Of a stretch of DNA of 64,000 bases, positions 1,440 to 56,584 are shown in pieces. Each line of letters starts with the position of its first letter. Position 1 is the stretch's first letter. A program made the position numbers and the translations under genes. A model generated the notes under the pieces. The model saw only the letters and a list, made by a program, of their open reading frames with translations, was not told the DNA's origin and did no database searches. The DNA is from Spirochaetales bacterium (GTDB lineage: Bacteria > Spirochaetota > Spirochaetia > SZUA-6 > JAFGRV01), in contig JAFGWI010000009.1 of assembly GCA_016937215.1 (NCBI GenBank), positions 1,703-65,702 on the forward strand, written 5' to 3'.

Positions 1440-2066
1440 TCAGGAAAAATACTTTTTGGTGAACAATAACAAGGCCTTTTTCTTCAGGCTTTTTTGGGCG
1501 TCCTTCATGGCAACGATTAAAAGGCTGTTAAATGCCTTGATGTTGGCCATGTTTTCCAGGGTTTCCAGAATGATCATCCGGATCTTCACCGAGCTTCGAA
1601 GGTAGAGCGCGGCCAGCTCGGAGCCGCTTTGCATGATATTCAGCTGCCCCACTGCTGCTATGGCACAGGCCACCACTTTTTCATCATCATCCCACAGGCC
1701 TCGTCGAATAAAGGTATAGGCCGCTTTTTTACGACTGGCGACCAGTTGATTGATGATCTCGATGCGTTTTTTAGAATCATTCTGATGTAAAAAGGATTTT
1801 CCCAGAGTGTATTGCCTGTGAACCGACCGCAATTTGGTTAAAAAGGAATCCTCTGTTGCTGATGTTCCTGTTTCCCCAGGCTGGCTTAATTGTTTTTGAA
1901 GGTTTTCAAAGGCCTTTCGGATTCGGTGAAATTGATTTAGGGCGTTCTGGCCCTTATTCACATCAGGGTGATACAATTTTAGTAAGCGGCGGTAGGATTT
2001 TTTGATTGTTTCAAAGTCAGCTCCTGGCTCCACTTCCAGAATTCGGTAAATTTGCAACATGGTCAC
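1440..2066 (-). CDS. J-domain protein (DnaJ-like N-terminal J domain, HEAT/ARM-like helical C-terminus).
   Basis: The N-terminus reads IYRILEV..DFETIKKSYRRLLKLYHPDVNKG with an HPD motif. It overlaps the upstream SBD gene by 4 nt. It is the last gene of a five-gene minus-strand operon. Confidence 0.75.
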   Translation of the reverse strand: MTMLQIYRILEVEPGADFETIKKSYRRLLKLYHPDVNKGQNALNQFHRIRKAFENLQKQLSQPGETGTSATEDSFLTKLRSVHRQYTLGKSFLHQNDSKKRIEIINQLVASRKKAAYTFIRRGLWDDDEKVVACAIAAVGQLNIMQSGSELAALYLRSSVKIRMIILETLENMANIKAFNSLLIVAMKDAQKSLKKKALLLFTKKYFS

Positions 2067-2671
2067 AGGCTGGCTCTTTTCACAGCCTCGGCCTCGGCAA
2101 TAAGGGTTTCAAGTATCAAGGGCATTTCAATAATGGCCTGCCGATGTTCACGCTTAAGAGCCTCCTGAGCGAGAGTAAGATTTTCATAAATTTCAGAGGC
2201 AAAACTGCCTGAAAGAAGATGATGCTCCTGTGTCATTAACTGACTCAGGTGGCTGATATGCCTTTGAAGCCTGGTTTTTCTGTGATTCAGGTCGTCGCTC
2301 AGAAAATCCAGATTAAACACCTCGTCATAGCTTTCCACTGACAGGGTTTGAATCAGCTGCTTTTCGCTGGCTGTGTCCTCCATTTTGAGGGTGATTAATC
2401 CATGGGAATCAATGTGTATGGTCAGATCAATTTTGGGCTGGCTCTTTTTCTGGGCTTTTAATCCGGAAAGGACAAAGCGACCCAGTGATTTATTTTTGTG
2501 AGCACAGTCGGAATTTCCTTTGAGCAAATGAAGCTCAATGGAAAACTGGTTATCTGAAACAGTTGTTATGCTCTGAAAGGACTTTGCCGGTAATGGCGAG
2601 TTTTTTGGCACAAGTTTATAAAAGACATTTCCATCAATTTCTATTCCAATTGAATAGGGCAATTGATTCAT
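2063..2671 (-). CDS. Hsp70 (DnaK) substrate-binding-domain-only protein with no nucleotide-binding domain.
   Basis: Residues 5-105 align with the DnaK SBD-beta (SIGIE.DG....L..KN..P.K..Q.F.T..DNQ..I.L..G......NKSLG.F.L.G.........I..T..ID..G........EKQ). A helical lid-like tail follows. The N-terminal 380 aa of Hsp70 are absent, and the gene begins 6 nt after the upstream stop. Confidence 0.75.
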   Translation of the reverse strand: MNQLPYSIGIEIDGNVFYKLVPKNSPLPAKSFQSITTVSDNQFSIELHLLKGNSDCAHKNKSLGRFVLSGLKAQKKSQPKIDLTIHIDSHGLITLKMEDTASEKQLIQTLSVESYDEVFNLDFLSDDLNHRKTRLQRHISHLSQLMTQEHHLLSGSFASEIYENLTLAQEALKREHRQAIIEMPLILETLIAEAEAVKRASL

Positions 2672-2676
2672 CGCGG

Positions 2677-3273
2677 CTATTCCTTTGACAATTGTTCGGC
2701 CAGGGAAATAATAAGCTCAACCTCACCCACAGGAAGATCAACTTTCGAGGCAATCATCGCCGGTGTGAAGCCCTCGCTGTAATACATCAAAACTTTGTCC
2801 TTCAAGGGTAATTCCTCACTGATTTTCAGCGAAGGTGAGGGCTCAATTGTAACTGGCCGCTTTTTACTGATAATATCATTATATTCAATAGAGACCGAAG
2901 GCCTTCCTGTGTCACGTTTCAACAGGGCGATCTTTTTATCAGCCAGAATAAGATGCTCTTTTAAAAGACGAATTCTGTCCTCAATCAGCTGAATATTCTG
3001 ATCAGTGGTTGAATTCAGTTCCACTAAAATTTTTTCAACCTCTCCAGAAATATCATTCAAAATTTTTTGAGGGTGTACCATTCTTTTGATCCGTGCCCAG
3101 AGTATAAAATAAAGAATGGCCAAGCCGCTAACAACAATGGCTAGGGTTAGTATAAAGTTTTCCATATCAACTTCTAAAAATGAATTTTTTTTACGACCGT
3201 GACAAACCGCCATGGGCCGTTTCTCTTTTGACTGCTGGGGTTCCGCGAAATCCTGCCGCAGCCATTTTATCAT
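2677..3273 (-). CDS. Membrane-anchored coiled-coil protein. The C-terminal 30 aa weakly resemble a sigma region-4-like HTH.
   Basis: One TM helix (FILTLAIVVSGLAILYFILW) followed by a coiled-coil. The tail KVLMYYSEGFTPAMIASKVDLPVGEVELI parallels the fliA region 4 ([21 protein letters not shown]). The true start is possibly the internal Met before the TM. Confidence 0.5.
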   Translation of the reverse strand: MIKWLRQDFAEPQQSKEKRPMAVCHGRKKNSFLEVDMENFILTLAIVVSGLAILYFILWARIKRMVHPQKILNDISGEVEKILVELNSTTDQNIQLIEDRIRLLKEHLILADKKIALLKRDTGRPSVSIEYNDIISKKRPVTIEPSPSLKISEELPLKDKVLMYYSEGFTPAMIASKVDLPVGEVELIISLAEQLSKE

Positions 3274-3281
3274 AACACCAA

Positions 3282-3611
3282 TCAGGTGGTAATATCAATA
3301 TGCTGTCCCAAATCCGGGTCATGGTACACTTCTTTTTTATTTTTTTCTTCCAATTGTTGCCGCTTGTTATCTTTATTTTTCCGGTTCCTTTGCTCCTGTT
3401 TTTTTTGGCCTTCCTGGTTTACTTTATCGGCCCCCTCACCTATTTCCTGGGATTCATCAACAATGGTATCCTTAATTGCTGCCTGTTCTGCCAGCTCCAT
3501 TCCCTGAACCATCTGGGTATGGGGCAAATTCTCCTTAATATGGGCCTGTTCTTTACCAACCTGATTGATATGAGAAAACATCGTCTGCAAATCGATAGGA
3601 AGCATTGGCAT
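3282..3611 (-). CDS. Small charged hypothetical protein.
   Basis: 109-aa ORF, 4 nt from the FapA-like stop and 9 nt from the next gene. Lys/Glu/Gln-rich tail. No family recognised. Confidence 0.45.
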   Translation of the reverse strand: MPMLPIDLQTMFSHINQVGKEQAHIKENLPHTQMVQGMELAEQAAIKDTIVDESQEIGEGADKVNQEGQKKQEQRNRKNKDNKRQQLEEKNKKEVYHDPDLGQHIDITT

Positions 3612-3614
3612 AGG

Positions 3615-5555
3615 TTAGACAACTCTCCTTTTAAATTCTTCTTCGATGGCTTCGTATTTGGTAATACGAATCGTATTGTGTTCCAAAATAAAGGTAACAA
3701 ATTTGAATTCGTTTTTCACTTCCAAAAAAGCATCCTTAATATATAATTTGACTCCGGGAAAAACCTTTTCCGATGCGGAAATTTTACCGTCTTTTTTAAG
3801 AGCATCAAGATGCTCCCGGATTTCATTCATTTCCACATTCACCTGCTCAAGTTCTGCCAGACAGGTGTCTCTCTTTCCTGTAAGCTCTTGCAGATTGGCT
3901 TCCTTATCTTCTGAAAGCTTTCTTTGAACTTTTTTTAGATTCAAGAGAGTTTTGATATTGAGTTCAATTTCTTCCAGTTCTTTTTCAATTTCCATCTTAT
4001 TCTTTTCACAATTGACCAATTTTTCCTTGCTCAAGGGGTCATAACCCACTTCAAGAACTGTCTCTGTTCCCGCGATGGAGCCCAGGTTTTTCGCGTTAAT
4101 TTCTTCAGCCGCGCGGAGGTTTCCTCCTACAATTGAAGCCCGCCTTCCCTGGCAAATAATTTTTTTATTGGCATCCACATTGGAATGAAGAATACCTTCA
4201 TTAACCATAACATATTCAGAGGCCTCAATTTTGGCATGCTCGATAAATTTGGAGAAAACACTTTTGCCGCTTCTGACTTTACCTCCGTTTTTGCCTAAAA
4301 TACCCTGGTGCACAATAACATCACCCTCGGCATCTAGAATGCATTTACCCACATTACCCTTCACCTCGATATTTCCGGCTGCCTTTACGCTAAACCCATC
4401 CAACACGCTTCCCTTGATTATAACCGTTCCCAGAAAAAGGATATTTCCGGTTTGCAGATTAACATCACCATTAACTGTATAAATGGGTTCAACATTAATG
4501 CGGCCGCTCAAAAGCATAACTTGCCCATTTATTTCCGATATGGCCGTTGTACCGTCTTCAGAGAGCTTAACGTTTTTACCGATTTGGATTACTGTATCAC
4601 TGCCCGATTTGGCCGGTAAATTTTTACCAGTAACTGTTTTCCCATTAACACCCTTTTCAGGCAAGGTTTTTTTTGCCAAAACCTGACCAGCCACAACATT
4701 CTCGATTAAATTCAGCTCTTTAAAATCAACGCGCCCATCCTCTTCTTTAAGACTTACATTCTTGTGATCTGTATTAAAATGATATTGTATCTGAGCATCA
4801 TTACCATTAACAGGTTTCTGCCCCTCGGCAATTAAAATAGAGGTTGAATACTGTGGTCTGTCCTCGAATTCCTTAACAATATCTTCTTTAATTCCAAAAT
4901 AAACACCGTTATTTTCCAGAATCTTCTTGATATTTTCTTTGGATAAGTCAGCTCCACCGAGACGGGGAGGACTTACCTCCATGTAAACCTTCATTTCCAT
5001 ATCAACGATATCAACTGTCATAGTCGCGTCATTGATCGGGTTATAATCAAATTCTCCCACCTTTACCCAACGGTTTTCCGCGCGTTTCACCACCTTGGAT
5101 ATCATGGAGCTATCGTATTTGGTCACACCTCGCTTTAAAACCAAATCCAGGGCATTTTTCTCATTTGCCATCTTTCCCCTGCCAACGGCTTTTGTCACCT
5201 TAATATAAGCGCCATCATGGGTCAGGCGCACAAAAACCTCGCCATTGGCATCGCGTTTCTCGGTAATGTCACCAAAATCCTCAACAGAAAGATTCTCCAC
5301 TACACTATCGGCAGCTACCAGCTCTGTTCCTTCATAGACAAAAAGTTTCCATTCCTTGTCACCCACGCCAAACATGGCTTTCTGTCCTTTTTGGATTACC
5401 TCGTATTCCAAATCCTTTACAGGAATGCCCAATTCAATAGACGCATTGAGCAATGCCTCATTTATACTTTTACCCGTAATTTCAATGGTTTTATTACCCC
5501 TATCTTTTTCAGACTGGCGGTTCATAAATTCCCGTAATTGTGAAAGATTTACCAT
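3615..5555 (-). CDS. DUF342 / FapA-like (flagellar assembly protein A family) beta-helix protein.
   Basis: 646 aa. The central region has repetitive G-N/D-V/I-x-hydrophobic beta-helix repeats (GNILFLGTVIIKGSV..GNIEVKGNV..GDVIVHQG). C-terminal coiled coil. Shine-Dalgarno AAGGA sits 6 nt upstream of the ATG. First gene after fliA. Confidence 0.7.
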   Translation of the reverse strand: MVNLSQLREFMNRQSEKDRGNKTIEITGKSINEALLNASIELGIPVKDLEYEVIQKGQKAMFGVGDKEWKLFVYEGTELVAADSVVENLSVEDFGDITEKRDANGEVFVRLTHDGAYIKVTKAVGRGKMANEKNALDLVLKRGVTKYDSSMISKVVKRAENRWVKVGEFDYNPINDATMTVDIVDMEMKVYMEVSPPRLGGADLSKENIKKILENNGVYFGIKEDIVKEFEDRPQYSTSILIAEGQKPVNGNDAQIQYHFNTDHKNVSLKEEDGRVDFKELNLIENVVAGQVLAKKTLPEKGVNGKTVTGKNLPAKSGSDTVIQIGKNVKLSEDGTTAISEINGQVMLLSGRINVEPIYTVNGDVNLQTGNILFLGTVIIKGSVLDGFSVKAAGNIEVKGNVGKCILDAEGDVIVHQGILGKNGGKVRSGKSVFSKFIEHAKIEASEYVMVNEGILHSNVDANKKIICQGRRASIVGGNLRAAEEINAKNLGSIAGTETVLEVGYDPLSKEKLVNCEKNKMEIEKELEEIELNIKTLLNLKKVQRKLSEDKEANLQELTGKRDTCLAELEQVNVEMNEIREHLDALKKDGKISASEKVFPGVKLYIKDAFLEVKNEFKFVTFILEHNTIRITKYEAIEEEFKRRVV

Positions 5556-6072
5556 AAGTTCCTTCTTGGCTTTATTAAAATCCTCTTCGGGTCTGGACTT
5601 TAAACATCCTCCCCATCTTCAATAATGGCTCCTACCCTTTAAATATAATAAAAAACCAGGAGTGTTGCTATTTATTTACAGTTATTTGCATCATAGTATT
5701 TGTTCAGCCCATTGTTTTCCTGGAGCTTTTTCCTGGCCTCGAAAAGTTTTGAGCCGGTCTTTGGGCTTGCTGGTCATAAAGGCAAGCCAATTTATTGCTC
5801 GATTGTGAGTTTTTAAAACAAGCCCAAAGCCAAATCAGCAAAGTGAGTTTTTATGGCCTGCCTCATCATGGATCCAAAGACCAAGCTATTTTGCCGAAAT
5901 AAAGCATTATGCTAAACAACTTATTTTTTCTCACTCCAGTAGTTGCCCAAAAACAAAAAACATAAAAACCCTGGGTTAAAAGCCGTTAAAACCTTCAATC
6001 AGGTAAAATTGTCTTTGAGCAGCCAAGAAATGAGTGAAAAAGATGCAAAACCTACATTAATTATCGGCTAGT

Positions 6073-6858
6073 TTATATAATACCTTTTTTAATATTGCTT
6101 AATTTTGTACGTAATCGCATGATGGCTTTGGTATGCAATTGGGAAATCCGGGATTCGGTGACACTTAATACTTCACCAATTTCCTTGAGGGTCAAATCTT
6201 CATAATAATATAGCACAAGAACCTTTTTTTCTTTGTCAGGCAGTTCACTGATCGCTTCCACAATAACCCGCTTGATTTCATCTTTTTCCACTATCATGTC
6301 GGGATTCAGACTGGAAGGCGACTCAATACTATCTTCAATCGATATTTTATCACTATCCTCCCCTGTGCTCCACACATCATGAAGCGAGAGAATGGATGTT
6401 CCGCTTAATTTCAGCAAAAGCTGCTGAAATTCGTTTAAATCCATATTCATGGCCTTGGCAATTTCTTCATCAGTGGCCACGCGACCAAGCTGGGCTTCGA
6501 GAATACGTACCGTTTCTTCAAGTTCACGACTCTTTTGACGAACAGAACGAGGCACCCAATCGATTGATCGGAGCTCATCGAAAATAGCCCCACGAATACG
6601 GGTAACCGCGTAAGTCTTGAATTTTACGTGTTTATCAGGATCAAATTTCTCAATGGCATCGAAAAGTCCGAAAACACCATAACCAACAAGATCATCAAAT
6701 TCCACATTATGAGGCATGCCCATGGCAACTTTTCCAGCAACATATTTTACAAGAGGAGCATATTGTTTGACAAAAAAATCCCTGATTTTCGGATCCTTTT
6801 TGCGTTTGTACTGCTTCCAGAGATCCTGTTCTGATTTTCCTTCCAAGGTATTAACCAT
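6073..6858 (-). CDS. fliA: Flagellar sigma factor sigma-28 (FliA/SigD/WhiG family).
   Basis: Region 2 ([19 protein letters not shown]) and region 4 ([27 protein letters not shown]). 261 aa, downstream of flhF-flhG. Confidence 0.9.
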
Positions 6859-6863
6859 ATACT

Positions 6864-7613
6864 CTATCCTTCCTTGTCCCGCTGTAACCAGGTGTGAATT
6901 GCTTGCGCAGATTTACCCGGATCCTGAAGATATTCAGGAACATCCATTTTGGAATTCTTCTTTTCAGATGGTGAACCAATCTCCTCCCCACTGGAGGATT
7001 CAGAATTAAAGGTCGAAAAGGTGCCATCAAAATTATCCAGGGAAGGCATGTCGTCAATACCCATGTTATCAATGGTCGCGACATCATCCATTACCTGGCT
7101 TGGTTGATCATCATCGTCGAAATCAGCATCACTTTCATCATATCCAGAGCCTTTGCCATTATAGGAAACCGATTCAGCAGCGGCTGTTTCCTCAATATTC
7201 GATAAATCGGAAGAATCAAAGGATTCCGCGGCATCCATATCCGCACTATCTTCTGATTCAAGCTTTTTTTTGTTTTTTCGATAGGAACCTGCGGCTGAAG
7301 ATTCCTTTACCATATCCAATTCTTCACCAAAATCAGCCTGATAATCCTCATAGGGATTTTCACTATCGATTATCTCATCAATTTCAGTTCCTTTAGCCGG
7401 TTTCTCGATTGGATTATTTCCCGAAGAAGTTAATTCCGGTAAATAGCGATCGATAATAAAACCAATCCCAAAACCAAGGCCTCCGAAAATAACTGCTCCG
7501 AAAAGGGATCTTACGATAATTTCCCAAAAAGGTACACCGCCTATACCACCTGCCAGTATGGATAAAATCATAGCCACCAGAGCAAAAGCAATGATCACCT
7601 TCAAATTAACCAT
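6864..7613 (-). CDS. Hypothetical two-TM protein with a long acidic Asp/Glu/Ser-rich tail.
   Basis: The N-terminal 65 aa are hydrophobic and Gly-rich ([10 protein letters not shown]). The remainder is acidic low complexity. The gene sits between flhG and fliA, where Bacillus carries its che genes. Confidence 0.55.
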
Positions 7614-41735: not shown

Positions 41736-42974
41736 CTAGATAAATTCCTTAAACCAATCCTTCATTCTATCAAAGACATTTTTGAAAGAACCTTTTTTTT
41801 CTTTCGGTTTTTTTATCTCCCGAATTTCTGTTTGATTATCAGCATACATAACAAGTCCTACACCTGTTGAAAAGGCCGGATGGCGGTATTCTTCCACCAG
41901 GCCGCCCATTTTAACAGGATAACCAAGCCGCGTTGGCAGACCGAAAATCTCCATAGCCAATTCAATGGCGCCAGGCAAGAGGGCTCCGCCGCCAGTCAAA
42001 ACAACGCCTCCGCCAAGCATCTTCAGAAAACCCTTCTCATCAACCTTGGAACGAATAAGACCGTAGATTTCCTGCATTCGCGATTGAATGATTTCCGTTA
42101 AATCGCTTCGCATGATGCGTCTCGGCGCTCTGCCACCAACACTGGGAATCAGGACCTCTTCTTCGGGTTGAATCAATTCCTGATAACAACAGCCCGATTG
42201 AAGCTTGATTTTTTCGGCAGCCTCAATGGGGGTTTTCAGCATGATGGATAAATCATTGGTGACCTGTTCACCACCCAGAGGAAAAACCTCGGTATAATAG
42301 GGCGCGCCATTCAAAAAAACCATGACATCGGAGGTTCCGCAACCCAGGTCAATCAACAGAACACCCAGTTCCTTTTCATCATTAGAAAGCACTGCCCGCG
42401 CAGAAGCCAGGGGTTCCAGAACCAGATCGCAGGCTTTAAAACCAGAACGATTGATGCATTTGACTATATTCTGCGCCGATGAAATGGCACCGGTTATAAT
42501 ATGCACTTCAGCTTCCAAGCGGACACCCATCATTCCAATAGGATTTTTGACCCCGCCTTGATTATCCACAATAAATTCCTGGGGAATCACATGCAAAACT
42601 TCCCTGTCCATGGGAATCACGATGGTCTTAGCCGCGTCAATCACCCTTTCCACATCCTCGTTAGCGATTTCCCTGCCCCTTCCGGTTACAGCTACCACAC
42701 CACGGGAATTAATGCCTTCAATATCACCACCGGCCAGGCCGCTATATACTTCATCCACTTCGCGCCCGCTCATTAACTCGGCCGCTTCAATCGCGGTGAT
42801 GATGGATTTCACAGTGGCTTCAATATTAATGACTACGCCCCGCCTTAATCCTCGGGAAGGCGCGGTTCCGACACCGGTGATTTCAAGCATACCATTATGG
42901 TTATACTCACCAATGACAGCGCAAATTTTTGAAGTGCCGATGTCCAGACCAACAATGACTTCTTGTGCACTCAC
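41736..42974 (-). CDS. ftsA: Cell division protein FtsA.
   Basis: Actin-like ATPase fold motifs (VGLDIGTSKI). Confidence 0.95.
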   Translation of the reverse strand: MSAQEVIVGLDIGTSKICAVIGEYNHNGMLEITGVGTAPSRGLRRGVVINIEATVKSIITAIEAAELMSGREVDEVYSGLAGGDIEGINSRGVVAVTGRGREIANEDVERVIDAAKTIVIPMDREVLHVIPQEFIVDNQGGVKNPIGMMGVRLEAEVHIITGAISSAQNIVKCINRSGFKACDLVLEPLASARAVLSNDEKELGVLLIDLGCGTSDVMVFLNGAPYYTEVFPLGGEQVTNDLSIMLKTPIEAAEKIKLQSGCCYQELIQPEEEVLIPSVGGRAPRRIMRSDLTEIIQSRMQEIYGLIRSKVDEKGFLKMLGGGVVLTGGGALLPGAIELAMEIFGLPTRLGYPVKMGGLVEEYRHPAFSTGVGLVMYADNQTEIREIKKPKEKKGSFKNVFDRMKDWFKEFI

Positions 42975-53323: not shown

Positions 53324-56300
53324 TTAGGATTTGATATGAAGTTTCTCAAATATTTTGAAAATATCTACCGGTTCATTTCCAATAAATGAAAAAAAGAGGT
53401 AAGAGGCTTTAAGATTATACATAACAGGCAAAAAAACCGCTGAAGCAACATATTTTATATCCATCTCAGAAAATTTATCATTGAAAATTTCAGTTTTTTC
53501 TGGAGATTGATTCAATACCAGTATATGCCTTTGGGCAAAAATAGCCTGATAAATTTCTTCATTAGTATCAAATACCAAATTATGATGATCGCGATTTGAA
53601 AAACCCACAGAAAACACTGGCTTAAATTGATTTTCTTCAAGACTGAGAACAGCCGCACATATAGAAGCCAGATCGCGGGAAAGCTGTATAAGGGATTTGG
53701 TGATAACCAATTCGTCGTCCTTTTTTCCCAGTGCGCTTATATAACCATCCAAATCAATACCTTTATTTGACAGACCTATTTGAATGAATTTTTTTTGATG
53801 CTTGAATGGACGGTAGATTTTTTCATCATCAACAGCTTCATTGATCACTCGACTTGTTGTTTTGGTTTCAACCGCTTCCACAAGGCTTTTAAATTTAGGA
53901 TTAAACTTAGACAAAGAATGGCTGCCTGCAGTCTTGGCAACCTTATAAACACCCTTTTCTTCAATTATCGCCTTAAAATCTTCACTTTTTGACTCCAATA
54001 TATAACTTAAGGGATAAATATTGATAACTTTTCGTTTCATTGCATTTGAAACTTGTGGAAAGTTTAGTAATTTTATTAAAATATCACTTGCCGGTTCATG
54101 GTTTTTATTGTCATTTCTCAGATATAGCCGCTTTTGCGAATTCTTAATTAAGTAATACTTTCCTGCCTGCTCAAAAAAGTACTGGGACTCTTCATCAATA
54201 ACAGGCTCCAGCTCTTCCATTGATTCAGATTCCTTCGCCTGCCTATCGATCACTTCAAGCCCTGACAGGCCAGCCGAGACCACTGACTCTGATACTGATG
54301 CGCTTTCCTCCAGATCTCGACTCATGTCTTCAAATAAACCCTGAAGTCGATCACTCTGTTCTTGGGTCATCATGATGTCTTTATCATCATATTCTTCCAA
54401 AAGCTCAGGTATTTCATTGTCTTCAATCTCATCAAGATCTTCAAGGAGCTCACCTTCTTCAAGGGCTTTTACTTCCTCAATAATAGTTGGCTTTTTTAAG
54501 CTAGTATTTGCTTGTTTTTCTACCAGGTCTGCATCCTCAAGTTCTTCAAGCTCTAAAAGCTCATCAGATTCCTCAAAACTGTTATCTGCTTGTAAATCTT
54601 CAAGCTCCTGCAATTCTTCAAGACCATCATCCATTTCAGCCAACAATTCATTTTCAGTTTCTTCTTCAAGGCTCCGGGCCTCAGAAACTTCATCCAGCTC
54701 CTCCATTTCCTCCAGGTCTTCTATCTGGTTGGCTTTTTCCAGCTCTGCATTTGAAACATTACGTTTATCTTCTTCAAGCCTATCTTCAGAATCAGGATCT
54801 ATACTCGCCTTATCACGGCTATTGACTTTATTAGTTTTTTCTAAAATACCATCTCGACTCGCCTCAGCAAGCTCAAGATCATCGCCATCTAAGACTTCTG
54901 TTAAATCATCGTGTTCTTCATGGTTTAACTTATTTTCTTCAGGTGTCGCTATTCGGACTCCATCATCAGCTGATTCGATTTCTTCAAGATCTTCGATTTC
55001 ATCGAGATCTTCATTTTCCTTATCCAGATGATTTGAAAGAAGCTGCACATCCTCATCTGCATTAAGCTCGGCAACATCTATTTCCTCAAGCTCACCAGTC
55101 GCACTCTCTTGATCGTGGGAAGATTCAAGTTCCCTTACTTCATCGAGCTCATCAATATCTTCATTTGCTCTATCCGTTTCATTTACAGAAATTGATCCTA
55201 CTTCATTATTCTGAACAGAATTCTGACCTTTGGTTATTGATTTTTCACTGCCATGTTGTATCAAATTTTGTTGCGATGGTAAAACAAATTGACCGTTTTT
55301 CAATGCCTTGGCCAACATACTTTGAATCTGCCCAATGGCATCATCTCCAATGGAACTCTTAGCTGCCTTTTTTTCTAATATAATCAGAATTTCGTCCCAA
55401 CTCTTATCAATAAGATTATTGACCAATTCTTTTTTGGCTTTACCTACGCGGCCGATCCCCTTTTTTAGCTCTTTCTTAATTTCAGCCTCACGAGCAACCA
55501 TTTCCCTTTTCCATTTTTTCCAGTTCACTTCGATATCAGCTTCAATAAAGGTATTGAGCAACTCGATTTGAAAGCGCTTTATCCGGCGAGAAACTATCAG
55601 AACCGAATCCTCTTTAATATTGAATATAAAAAAGAAAATCAAATAAATAGTTACCAGTAGAATGATATTGATTAATAATTTAATGGAATCTGCAAGGCGA
55701 AAAAGGTTTTGCTTTAATAAAATACTGATAATGCCATAGTTTTCATCATGCACATTAAACAATAAAAAGGAACTGGCTGATTCTTCATCAACGGCATTTT
55801 CAAGAACATCAACATAAGCTTCGGTAGAAGAATTTCGGTTCCACATTTCTTTTATCAATGGAACCAATTCCTCATTTACCGAAAGAGGCAGATTCAAAAC
55901 CAATCCTTCATCTTCAACCAGGACCAAATTTTGAGCAAGGGAAATATCATTTTCATTAACTAAAAATCTCTGTAATTCCTTATAATTGATATAAATAAGA
56001 GCCGTTCCCTTGTAAATGTCAAATTCATCGATCATGGGAAAGCAATAAATAAATCGATTGTTATATCCGTCTAGGTAGATATAAGGCTCATCAGATTTGG
56101 CAACAATCAAACGTGAATCAGGAACTCTTTCACCAAGTTGGTCATAATTATAATATACAATTTCACGATCAGTACGAGATTTAATATCACCATCCCTGGT
56201 ACTGAAATGAATCGTTTTCCCTTTTTCACCCAGCAATCTGATAAACAGAAAGTCTGGCATGTTGTTCTTCAACAACTCAAATTTTTCAGACCTTCTAAAT

Positions 56301-56584
56301 ATGTCCTCTGAAGATTTTCGCTGATCAGAAACATAAGCAGAAATGACAAAAGGATTGGCCAGTATGTTTTGAAATAATTCGATGTTATTTTTATGATACA
56401 ATCGAACCTCATCCGCAACAAGTAAAGTTCGCTTCAAATATTCATTTCGCAAATTCTGATTAAAAAATTGTGTTTCTATGACATTAAAAAGATTAATGGA
56501 AAAAAACAACAAATATAGGGTAAATAGGAGTATTGTAAGAAATAGACTTAATGCTATTTTTAAACCTTGATTCATGAACCTCAA
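53324..56584 (-). CDS. Giant two-TM membrane protein. It has a ~270-aa extracytoplasmic domain, a ~400-aa acidic D/E/L-rich low-complexity linker and a ~300-aa C-terminal globular domain. Function unknown.
   Basis: TM1 at aa 10-33 and TM2 at about aa 300-320. Repetitive EELEDLEE/DELDEVxE stretches. No catalytic motif recognised. Confidence 0.7.
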   Translation of the reverse strand: MRFMNQGLKIALSLFLTILLFTLYLLFFSINLFNVIETQFFNQNLRNEYLKRTLLVADEVRLYHKNNIELFQNILANPFVISAYVSDQRKSSEDIFRRSEKFELLKNNMPDFLFIRLLGEKGKTIHFSTRDGDIKSRTDREIVYYNYDQLGERVPDSRLIVAKSDEPYIYLDGYNNRFIYCFPMIDEFDIYKGTALIYINYKELQRFLVNENDISLAQNLVLVEDEGLVLNLPLSVNEELVPLIKEMWNRNSSTEAYVDVLENAVDEESASSFLLFNVHDENYGIISILLKQNLFRLADSIKLLINIILLVTIYLIFFFIFNIKEDSVLIVSRRIKRFQIELLNTFIEADIEVNWKKWKREMVAREAEIKKELKKGIGRVGKAKKELVNNLIDKSWDEILIILEKKAAKSSIGDDAIGQIQSMLAKALKNGQFVLPSQQNLIQHGSEKSITKGQNSVQNNEVGSISVNETDRANEDIDELDEVRELESSHDQESATGELEEIDVAELNADEDVQLLSNHLDKENEDLDEIEDLEEIESADDGVRIATPEENKLNHEEHDDLTEVLDGDDLELAEASRDGILEKTNKVNSRDKASIDPDSEDRLEEDKRNVSNAELEKANQIEDLEEMEELDEVSEARSLEEETENELLAEMDDGLEELQELEDLQADNSFEESDELLELEELEDADLVEKQANTSLKKPTIIEEVKALEEGELLEDLDEIEDNEIPELLEEYDDKDIMMTQEQSDRLQGLFEDMSRDLEESASVSESVVSAGLSGLEVIDRQAKESESMEELEPVIDEESQYFFEQAGKYYLIKNSQKRLYLRNDNKNHEPASDILIKLLNFPQVSNAMKRKVINIYPLSYILESKSEDFKAIIEEKGVYKVAKTAGSHSLSKFNPKFKSLVEAVETKTTSRVINEAVDDEKIYRPFKHQKKFIQIGLSNKGIDLDGYISALGKKDDELVITKSLIQLSRDLASICAAVLSLEENQFKPVFSVGFSNRDHHNLVFDTNEEIYQAIFAQRHILVLNQSPEKTEIFNDKFSEMDIKYVASAVFLPVMYNLKASYLFFSFIGNEPVDIFKIFEKLHIKS

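Follow-up and report, generated by a model that had tools for sequence, protein, structure and literature searches.

Can the substrate-binding domain (SBD) of an Hsp70 chaperone be kept as a gene in its own right, and what might such a gene do? Hsp70 function is normally explained by the allosteric coupling of an ATPase domain, the nucleotide-binding domain (NBD), with the SBD. The question is raised by a gene of 609 nt (2063..2671, minus strand; stop codon TGA at 2063-2065) in a 64-kb stretch of DNA from a Spirochaetales bacterium (contig JAFGWI010000009.1), the whole of which is referred to below as the window. Its product of 202 amino acids (aa) is annotated by NCBI as 'MAG: Hsp70 family protein [Spirochaetales bacterium]' (MAG, metagenome-assembled genome), and a previous reading of the sequence alone had proposed that it is a stand-alone Hsp70 SBD without an NBD. 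The open reading frame (ORF) and matches in Pfam, NCBIfam, the PDB and Foldseek, the last made with an AlphaFold2 (AF2) model, are confined to the SBD and bear this proposal out. The truncation in the window is clean and the gene is conserved; natural SBD-only proteins of this kind are retained in at least five sequence groups, each beside a J-domain protein whose HPD motif is intact.

A substrate-binding domain encoded on its own

Residues 5-106 of the SBD-only protein match positions 391-492 of the 599 in the Pfam HSP70 profile (PF00012; E 9.3e-21, 74 bits), a significant similarity to the Hsp70 SBD, the lack of which the sequence-only reading had named as a refutation. The NCBIfam DnaK and HscA models likewise match in their SBD part only, some extending to residue ~180-196 and the HscA model covering residues 3-180, so that NCBIfam and Pfam coverage is confined to profile positions ~387-580. 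Both scores fall far below the respective cut-offs (85.9 bits against an equivalog cut-off of 648 for DnaK, PRK00290, and 85.2 bits against 708.55 for HscA). In the PDB, phmmer aligns query residues 4-156 with chains of the DnaK SBD, 1DKZ among them (E ~1e-19 to 2e-20). The 1DKZ alignment is ungapped from query residue 4, equivalent to DnaK T395, and query residue i corresponds to DnaK i+391 throughout the beta domain; as a whole, the protein is equivalent to DnaK residues ~395-600, comprising the SBD-beta sandwich and the helical lid. The motif-by-motif correspondence with DnaK SBD-beta claimed earlier is found in full, with SIGIE at residues 7-11, KN..P.K at 23-30, DNQ at 40-42, NKSLGRFVLSG at 60-70, I..T..ID..G at 81-91, and EKQ at 103-105.

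An AF2 model, built from a 16-sequence family alignment (pLDDT 87.1, pTM 0.71), displays eight beta strands (7-111) followed by three long helices (128-201). Together with the 1DKZ alignment and the column analysis described below, these strands delimit an SBD-beta sandwich of residues 4-112 (2336..2662, minus strand), equivalent to DnaK 395-503. The top Foldseek matches of the model in the PDB are crystals of isolated DnaK SBDs (E 5e-16, ~210 aligned columns, 25-28% identity). Because these ~210 columns align to crystals that contain both the beta domain and the lid, the C-terminal extension, previously called lid-like, is a real homologous lid (residues 113-202; 2066..2335, minus strand). 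It is formed from a tether (118-125) and three helices (128-152, 155-174, and 177-201), and carries the family motif L187-E188-T-L-I-A-E193.

The peptide-binding cleft is lined by I10, I12, D13, I35, V38, I45, L47, and I81, of which I10, I35, I45, L47, and I81 occupy the positions of DnaK I401, F426, V436, I438, and I472, and D13 that of the arch residue M404. Judged by these residues, a hydrophobic peptide pocket is present, and the protein is predicted to bind peptide. Isolated DnaK SBDs do so without an NBD, as displayed by the crystal structures 1DKZ, 4EZP, and others in the PDB.

Could an NBD nevertheless be encoded, whole or in pieces, ahead of the gene? The ATG lies at 2669-2671 and the TAG of the upstream gene at 2677-2679, on the same strand, in a different frame, and only 5 nt away. 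No in-frame start was found upstream of 2671, and the ORF opens at the first possible start after a stop. A Shine-Dalgarno-like AAGGAA (2680..2685, minus strand), which is recognized only by its resemblance to the consensus, sits 8 nt upstream of the ATG, within the end of the upstream gene. The protein opens with MNQLPYSIGIE and aligns from DnaK T395, with N2 at the position of D393; hence it starts at beta-strand 1, where the SBD itself starts, as had been stated, and the hydrophobic interdomain linker (389-VLLLD-393 in DnaK) is not present. A tblastn search of the whole window with the NBDs of two full-length orthologues found no NBD remnant. Its best match is marginal (E 0.007) and lies inside ftsA (42291-42446), whose product is an actin-fold ATPase, like the Hsp70 NBD.

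The 5-nt gap together with the tblastn result rules out a decayed NBD in this window. An ORF artefact is likewise ruled out, by conserved synteny and by a proportion of nonsynonymous differences (pN) far below that of synonymous differences (pS): the window gene and that of its closest relative (locus L004) differ with pN 0.26 and a saturated pS of 0.92, the values for their neighbouring J-domain genes being 0.30 and 0.80.

Full-length, broken, and SBD-only forms in one operon slot

Where does such a gene come from? Relatives were gathered in several ways. Among 1.84 billion representatives searched exhaustively with HMMER, only the 202-aa protein itself scored above 1e-30, and the weaker matches include full-coverage proteins of 203-218 aa; further relatives came from word-indexed and profile searches. 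The word-indexed search with an SBD profile, seemingly biased to short proteins, returned fragments of DnaK for the most part and none of the full-length members; the full-length family was retrieved with a profile made from full-length members. A locus scan with a three-sequence alignment was swamped by canonical dnaK through the stretch EIHVLQGE, its two best loci (L007 and L008) being informative, and a scan of genome contigs with the single protein gave no matches.

SBD-only forms of 202-226 aa make up 12 clusters (at 90% identity) in five sequence groups. Their neighbourhood reads flhA-flhF-flhG-x-fliA-fapA-~107aa-DUF6115-[SBD-only]-J/HEAT, the last encoding a protein of ~210 aa and often followed by cheW-cheA-cheY; this synteny is seen for P0034 (L001/L002), P0152 (L092), P0110 (L087), P0073 (L089), P0161 (a JGI contig), P0002 (L004), and P0068 (L006). 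All 12 related loci with sequence upstream of the slot share the order fliA-fapA-~107aa-DUF6115-[Hsp70].

The same slot is occupied in four other loci, L007 (Rectinemataceae), L008, L090, and L091, by a full-length Hsp70 of 551-570 aa with an NBD. The full-length family amounts to ~105 clusters (90% identity; 550-585 aa) before canonical DnaKs appear in the profile search, and the named clusters all come from spirochaetes, Spirochaeta africana and S. dissipatitropha among them. Its members have an NBD of ~375 aa with intact ATPase motifs, and a linker. In the flagellar-slot proteins inspected for it (L007, L008, P0027, and P0028), this linker reads IALQD, IEIRD, LRIRD, or IFTD in place of the VLLLD of DnaK, which hints at changed allostery even where the NBD is present.

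Two further loci display a broken form. In L005, one frameshift breaks the NBD of the flagellar-slot Hsp70 (5808-6931), and in L088 this domain lies in three pieces and two frames with a duplicated segment (5467-7162), such that only the C-terminal 230 aa are called as a gene. These loci could represent intermediates of NBD loss or else assembly errors. The earlier statement that the gene is not a split dnaK, with no NBD coding sequence upstream, stands for the window, by tblastn and by ORF analysis, but not for the family, in which these two relatives carry frameshifted NBDs. A decayed dnaK paralogue, which the sequence-only reading had set against its own proposal, fits the history of the family, though not the DNA of this window.

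Over the SBD, the window protein shares 36% identity with full-length members, and the SBD-only forms as a whole range from 33 to 44%. Each SBD-only group is closer to some full-length member than to the other SBD-only groups (for example, 44% versus 35-36%; for the window protein, 36% versus 28% to an SBD-only form of another group). The 12 SBD-only clusters are themselves 22-33% identical to the window protein, save for the closest relative, in L004, at 58%. In neighbour-joining trees, the SBD-only forms fall in at least three separate positions among the full-length members; the tree with 76 full-length members is unbootstrapped and was supplemented by the nearest-neighbour identities. By position and sequence, the SBD-only protein is the NBD-less form of a spirochaete-specific, flagellar-slot Hsp70 paralogue, and the NBD has probably been lost three or more times independently. 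In several SBD-only groups, the start codon falls exactly at beta-strand 1.

What has been kept in the course of this loss emerges when the 12 SBD-only forms are compared at those alignment columns whose conservation reaches 85% or more among 76 non-redundant full-length members (DnaK numbering is used throughout). Kept in the SBD-only forms are G400, E402, P419, F426 (I in the window clade), T427, T428, Q433, E437, H439, S453, G455, R456, F457, L459, G461, P470, I472, D479, G482, and D490. An acidic residue at the arch position M404 is present in 71 of the 76 full-length and all 12 SBD-only members (D13 in the window protein), and Ile at T403 (I12) and Val or Ile at A429 are family-wide features. 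In the lid, E160, L187, E188, and E193 of the window protein are conserved in full-length and SBD-only members, the last three as part of a family lid motif L-E-T/A-x-x-x-E.

In contrast, D393, N415, Q442, and F476 are present in at least 96% of the 76 full-length members and in at most 25% of the 12 SBD-only forms. N415 is Gly in nine of the 12, Q442 and F476 are each kept in three, and N451 and L454 are partly lost. In the window protein, K23-N24 (DnaK K414-N415) is retained, but D393, Q442, D481, and F476 are replaced by N, K, H, and I, respectively. D393, K414/N415, Q442, L454, and D481 are experimentally known interdomain allosteric sites of DnaK, where N415 contacts D326 and T221, Q442 contacts D148, and D481 contacts I168, and where N415G impairs coupling (PMC5240922). 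Four of the eight relaxed columns fall among the seven conserved columns on this allosteric list (p ~0.025, a hypergeometric estimate). The residue pattern indicates that the client-binding surface of the paralogue is preserved and the NBD-docking surface is not. That the protein would be functionally distinct from DnaK, as had been suggested, is plausible and is backed by this loss of NBD-docking residues.

A J-domain partner and how the pair may act

The gene that follows (1440..2066, minus strand) encodes a protein of 208 aa with a J domain and HEAT repeats, referred to as J-HEAT. Its GTG start overlaps the TGA of the SBD-only gene by 4 nt (GTGA). The J domain is identified by Pfam DnaJ at residues 6-58 (PF00226, E 2.9e-15), and its HPD motif, H33-P34-D35, is encoded by the codons CAC CCT GAT at 1962..1970. 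The HEAT-repeat domain spans residues ~88-205 (1452..1805, minus strand), with a weak Pfam HEAT_2 match at 93-161 and an NCBIfam NblB-like match at 105-198. An alignment of 11 orthologues, taken from five SBD-only loci, four intact full-length loci, and L005 and L088 with their frameshifted NBDs, has an invariant HPD and a conserved HEAT block, LG.SGKKSAYAFLRKAL…QSAGEL, and the linker between the two domains is variable. A J-HEAT orthologue directly follows the Hsp70 gene in 11 of the 11 related loci in which the downstream gene is visible.

Overlapping by 4 nt, and with the HPD of the second intact, the SBD-only gene and its neighbour form a conserved chaperone module of two genes, in which J-HEAT would be a J-domain co-chaperone predicted to stimulate ATPase activity. 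J domains dock where the NBD meets SBD-beta and thereby trigger ATP hydrolysis (PMC11019930). Since a J domain with an HPD has only the ATPase domain of an Hsp70 to act on, the target of J-HEAT in SBD-only lineages can only be another Hsp70, and most simply the housekeeping DnaK.

How might the module work? The reading that we favour, with somewhat better than even confidence, is that the SBD-only protein is a nucleotide-independent client clamp that acts with J-HEAT and the housekeeping DnaK. The ancestral state would have been a dedicated Hsp70/J-domain protein pair, following an HscA/HscB-like logic and co-expressed with late flagellar and chemotaxis genes. In the derived state, as in the window, the SBD alone would clamp peptides irrespective of nucleotide, acting as a holdase or adaptor on the dedicated client or clients of the full-length paralogue, and J-HEAT would recruit the housekeeping DnaK, which would provide in trans the ATP-driven steps by which the client is loaded, released, or remodelled. 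The module would thereby have shifted from a dedicated pair to an SBD clamp, a J-domain protein, and the general DnaK. Components of flagellar or chemotaxis assembly that are expressed from the operon along with it are the probable clients; by proximity alone, candidates are the translationally coupled membrane/coiled-coil product of the DUF6115 gene, the 109-aa protein, FapA, and the proteins of chemotaxis. The sequence-only reading had suggested flagellar export substrates as possible clients. As a matter of speculation, the acidic arch residue may favour basic-hydrophobic segments. We put forward more tentatively, as a possibility that we consider rather doubtful, the fuller proposal of a trans system, in which the NBD was discarded repeatedly, the SBD binds the client, and J-HEAT couples the free SBD to DnaK for both loading and unloading.

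A clamp without a nucleotide switch has, to judge from the absent NBD, no built-in release, and this property would also suit a regulatory decoy or sequestering factor. Such a protein would pass no client on to DnaK. It would compete with DnaK, or with the client site of J-HEAT, for a specific motif and so keep some regulator or subunit of the flagellum or of chemotaxis inactive pending a cue for assembly, or would gate J-HEAT as a pseudo-substrate. The position of the gene near the regulatory genes fliA, fapA, and flhF/flhG agrees with such a role, and the translational coupling with J-HEAT through GTGA suggests joint action. However, the J-HEAT linker, which could be the pseudo-substrate, is not conserved, and no sequestered target is indicated by the data. 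Because the full-length orthologues keep their ATPase motifs, the ancestral role appears to have been an active chaperone cycle and not sequestration, and we consider a decoy unlikely. Less likely still is a slowly decaying relic, in which a functionless SBD ORF merely persists inside a constrained, translationally coupled operon. One SBD-only pair, L002 versus L092, does have a ratio of nonsynonymous to synonymous substitution rates (dN/dS) of 0.57, compared with 0.20 for J-HEAT and 0.22 for the DUF6115 gene of the same loci, its departure from neutrality being marginal (chi-square ~4.8, hand calculation). SBD-only branches are long in the trees, the frameshifted NBDs of L005 and L088 point to a decay-prone locus, and transposon mutants of bb0264, the Borrelia burgdorferi gene in this slot, are viable. 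Given the faster dN/dS in this pair and the long branches, constraint on the SBD-only gene, as estimated from these comparisons, is real but weaker than on its neighbours. A functionless ORF is nevertheless difficult to reconcile with intact ORFs of 202-226 aa in 12 clusters that are for the most part so divergent, with invariant pocket, arch, and lid motifs, with a pN far below saturated pS in the window clade, and with start codons placed precisely at beta-strand 1 in several groups; nor is the relaxation even, being concentrated at NBD-interface positions.

These same positions bear on the possibility of a split Hsp70, in which an NBD-only protein encoded elsewhere docks non-covalently and J-HEAT stimulates an ATP-regulated complex. 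The retained J domain with its HPD and the K23-N24 pair of the window protein are compatible with such an arrangement. The linker including D393 is absent, though; most SBD-only forms have lost N415, Q442, and F476, with K at Q442 and H at D481 in the window protein itself. Loss of the NBD-docking surface alongside retention of the client surface thus disfavours an NBD supplied in trans. Moreover, within the SBD-only neighbourhoods examined, of up to ~15 kb apiece, no NBD-like gene (PF00012 or MreB-like) is present, nor does the 64-kb window have one, save for ftsA, and we find a split Hsp70 the least probable of the explanations considered, by our estimate very improbable.

The proposal of a nucleotide-independent clamp working with J-HEAT and DnaK has several points against it as well, beyond the elevated dN/dS of one pair and the long branches mentioned above. 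The model superposes on closed DnaK SBD structures with a template modelling score of only ~0.54, because its lid is oriented differently, and a DnaK-like closed lid is thus not established; the lid is, in addition, attached through a low-confidence tether (residues 118-125). Within the pocket, the window protein has I at DnaK F426, where the family has F. The number of NBD losses rests on neighbour-joining trees with weak deep nodes, in which long-branch effects are likely, and the two broken forms, L005 and L088, come from MAG assemblies, where sequencing error is possible. Finally, Borrelia is without a J-HEAT gene, and the pair is therefore not obligatory across the family.

The occurrence of full-length, frameshifted, and truncated states at one locus amounts to a natural experiment on an SBD without its own ATPase and on a J protein that swaps Hsp70 partners. 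If the trans system proposed above is true, then substrate-binding and ATPase functions would be separable onto different polypeptides in vivo, and a dedicated chaperone step in the assembly of the periplasmic flagellum or the chemoreceptors would have been identified. The module, which may serve flagellar or chemotaxis assembly, is a little-studied one at the end of the spirochaete motility superoperon, where the agent of Lyme disease has BB0264/dnaK-1.

Operon context and comparison with known systems

The spirochaete flgB motility superoperon takes up the stretch from ~1440 to ~32000, with every gene on the minus strand, and the SBD-only gene is its second to last. Proceeding from high coordinates toward the 3' end, the superoperon includes fliF, flgE, a fliK-like gene, fliM/N, fliO, fliP, fliR, flhB, flhA, flhF, and flhG; its 3' part then continues with a 249-aa gene at the position of FlgV, fliA, fapA, a 109-aa gene, the DUF6115-like gene, the SBD-only gene, and the J-domain and HEAT gene. 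The genes around the superoperon, hslUV, topA, ftsA/ftsZ, that for RNase Y, and secY, match the bb0264-bb0300 region of B. burgdorferi, with which the window as a whole is syntenic.

Directly upstream of the SBD-only gene, the DUF6115-like gene (2677..3273, minus strand) encodes a protein with a transmembrane helix, a coiled coil, and a DUF6115/SpiroCoCo_C-like C terminus (Pfam DUF6115, E 4e-4; NCBIfam SpiroCoCo_C). Its true start is probably M37 (3165), which would give ~162 aa, as in the orthologues directly upstream of the Hsp70 slot (148-182 aa, most of them 157-169, with 204-274 aa in three loci). The 109-aa hypothetical gene (3282..3611, minus strand) matches no Pfam or NCBIfam family, and orthologues of 105-111 aa are found at the same position in the loci that reach that far upstream. 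Next is fapA (3615..5555, minus strand; Jag_N, FapA_N, and FapA domains, Pfam E 6e-75 and 3e-49), the first gene after fliA. The two are separated by a non-coding gap of 517 nt (5556-6072) inside an otherwise tightly packed operon. This gap may hold an internal promoter for a sub-operon running from fapA to J-HEAT, as a candidate; a promoter scan gave weak sigma-70-like matches only.

Between flhG and fliA, the 249-aa protein (6864-7613, minus strand) has N-terminal transmembrane helices and an acidic low-complexity tail, and no match in Pfam or NCBIfam. This is the position of FlgV (bb0268) in B. burgdorferi (PMC11607428), and the assignment is positional only. Outside the superoperon, an ORF of 1086 aa (53324-56584, minus strand) adjoins the RNase Y gene and has no Pfam match at E <= 1e-5. 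Just downstream of J-HEAT, in an ORF-poor stretch (600-1440) where relatives have cheW-cheA, lies a long imperfect inverted repeat (654-773 / 1206-1324), whose adjacent arms, 52 nt long at 90% complementarity and 72 nt long at 75%, are ~430 nt apart. Either the remnant of a mobile element or the scar of a rearrangement could account for it. Neither Rfam nor a tRNA scan gave any match in the window, the inverted repeat included as regards Rfam.

A close parallel by position is BB0264 of B. burgdorferi (DnaK-1, 'heat shock protein 70'), which occupies the same slot after bb0267 (fapA), bb0266, and bb0265, downstream of flhA-flhF-flhG-flgV. The B. burgdorferi flgB superoperon has been defined as bb0294-bb0264 (PMC11607428). 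Like the window protein, BB0264 is a non-housekeeping Hsp70 paralogue, and it is the last gene of its superoperon, with the hslUV and ftsA/ftsZ synteny shared; the likeness rests on position and annotation and not on sequence. Unlike the window protein, it is 491 aa long (277090-278565), and on account of this length it would retain the NBD along with an SBD-beta, probably without most of the lid. No J-HEAT gene follows, the next gene, bb0263, being lepB-3 on the opposite strand. A mutant study describes the viable bb0264 transposon mutants, one of them with reduced tissue colonisation or infectivity (PMC3485029). Judging from the length of BB0264 alone, different spirochaete lineages seem to have trimmed different modules of the paralogue.

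ATPase-less SBDs had been called rare. They are indeed uncommon, but not unique, since the same database search returned other NBD-less architectures, both tandem-SBD proteins of exported appearance and a SHOCT-fused one. Proteins P0010, P0011, P0015, P0019, and P0012 share with the window protein an SBD without an NBD, but are of a different lineage, have 420-550 aa with two tandem SBD-beta copies, and bear a signal/lipobox-like or unrelated N-terminal domain. Unusual Hsp70 architectures in this set, which also includes P0003 and P0006, fall into three classes: an NBD-less class of 420-450 aa with a signal/lipobox-like N terminus, two tandem SBD-beta copies and a lid; a class with two SBD-beta copies and a C-terminal SHOCT domain (P0012); and full-length Hsp70s with a duplicated SBD-beta. 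The Hsp70-NBD/SBD and HEAT proteins of the CoCoNuT paper occur in a context different from that of the flagellar-slot module. In a limited open-access literature, we found no description of an NBD-less flagellar-operon Hsp70 or of its J-HEAT partner, nor anything specific on bacterial Hsp70s without an NBD or on an Hsp70 in the flgB superoperon, which is not proof of novelty.

With HscA/HscB, the window pair shares the logic of a specialised Hsp70 paralogue that stands beside its own small J co-chaperone and has a narrow client set. HscA, however, always has an NBD, its partner HscB has a C-domain where the window J protein has HEAT repeats, and there is no isc context here; identity with HscA itself is ruled out by the flagellar context and the sub-cut-off score (85 versus 709 bits). 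The E. coli DnaK SBD (389-607, 1DKZ) has the same fold and boundaries, an eight-stranded sandwich followed by a lid, at ~26% identity over ~210 columns, and its pocket positions are hydrophobic in the window protein, too. It is an engineered fragment, whereas the window protein is a natural stand-alone gene product that differs in having Asp at M404, Val at A429, no C-terminal disordered tail, and another lid orientation in the model.

The full-length flagellar-slot Hsp70s share with the window protein the gene neighbourhood, the J-HEAT partner, the acidic arch, I at T403, and the lid sequence ALET..GE, and differ in having an NBD, a linker, and conserved docking residues (D393, N415, and Q442). 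Compared with canonical Hsp70/DnaK, then, the window protein has the SBD-beta domain and the lid but lacks the NBD, the linker, and an equivalog-level score; compared with the flagellar-slot paralogue, it has the position, the signatures, and the J-HEAT partner, and departs from the full-length architecture of 551-585 aa.

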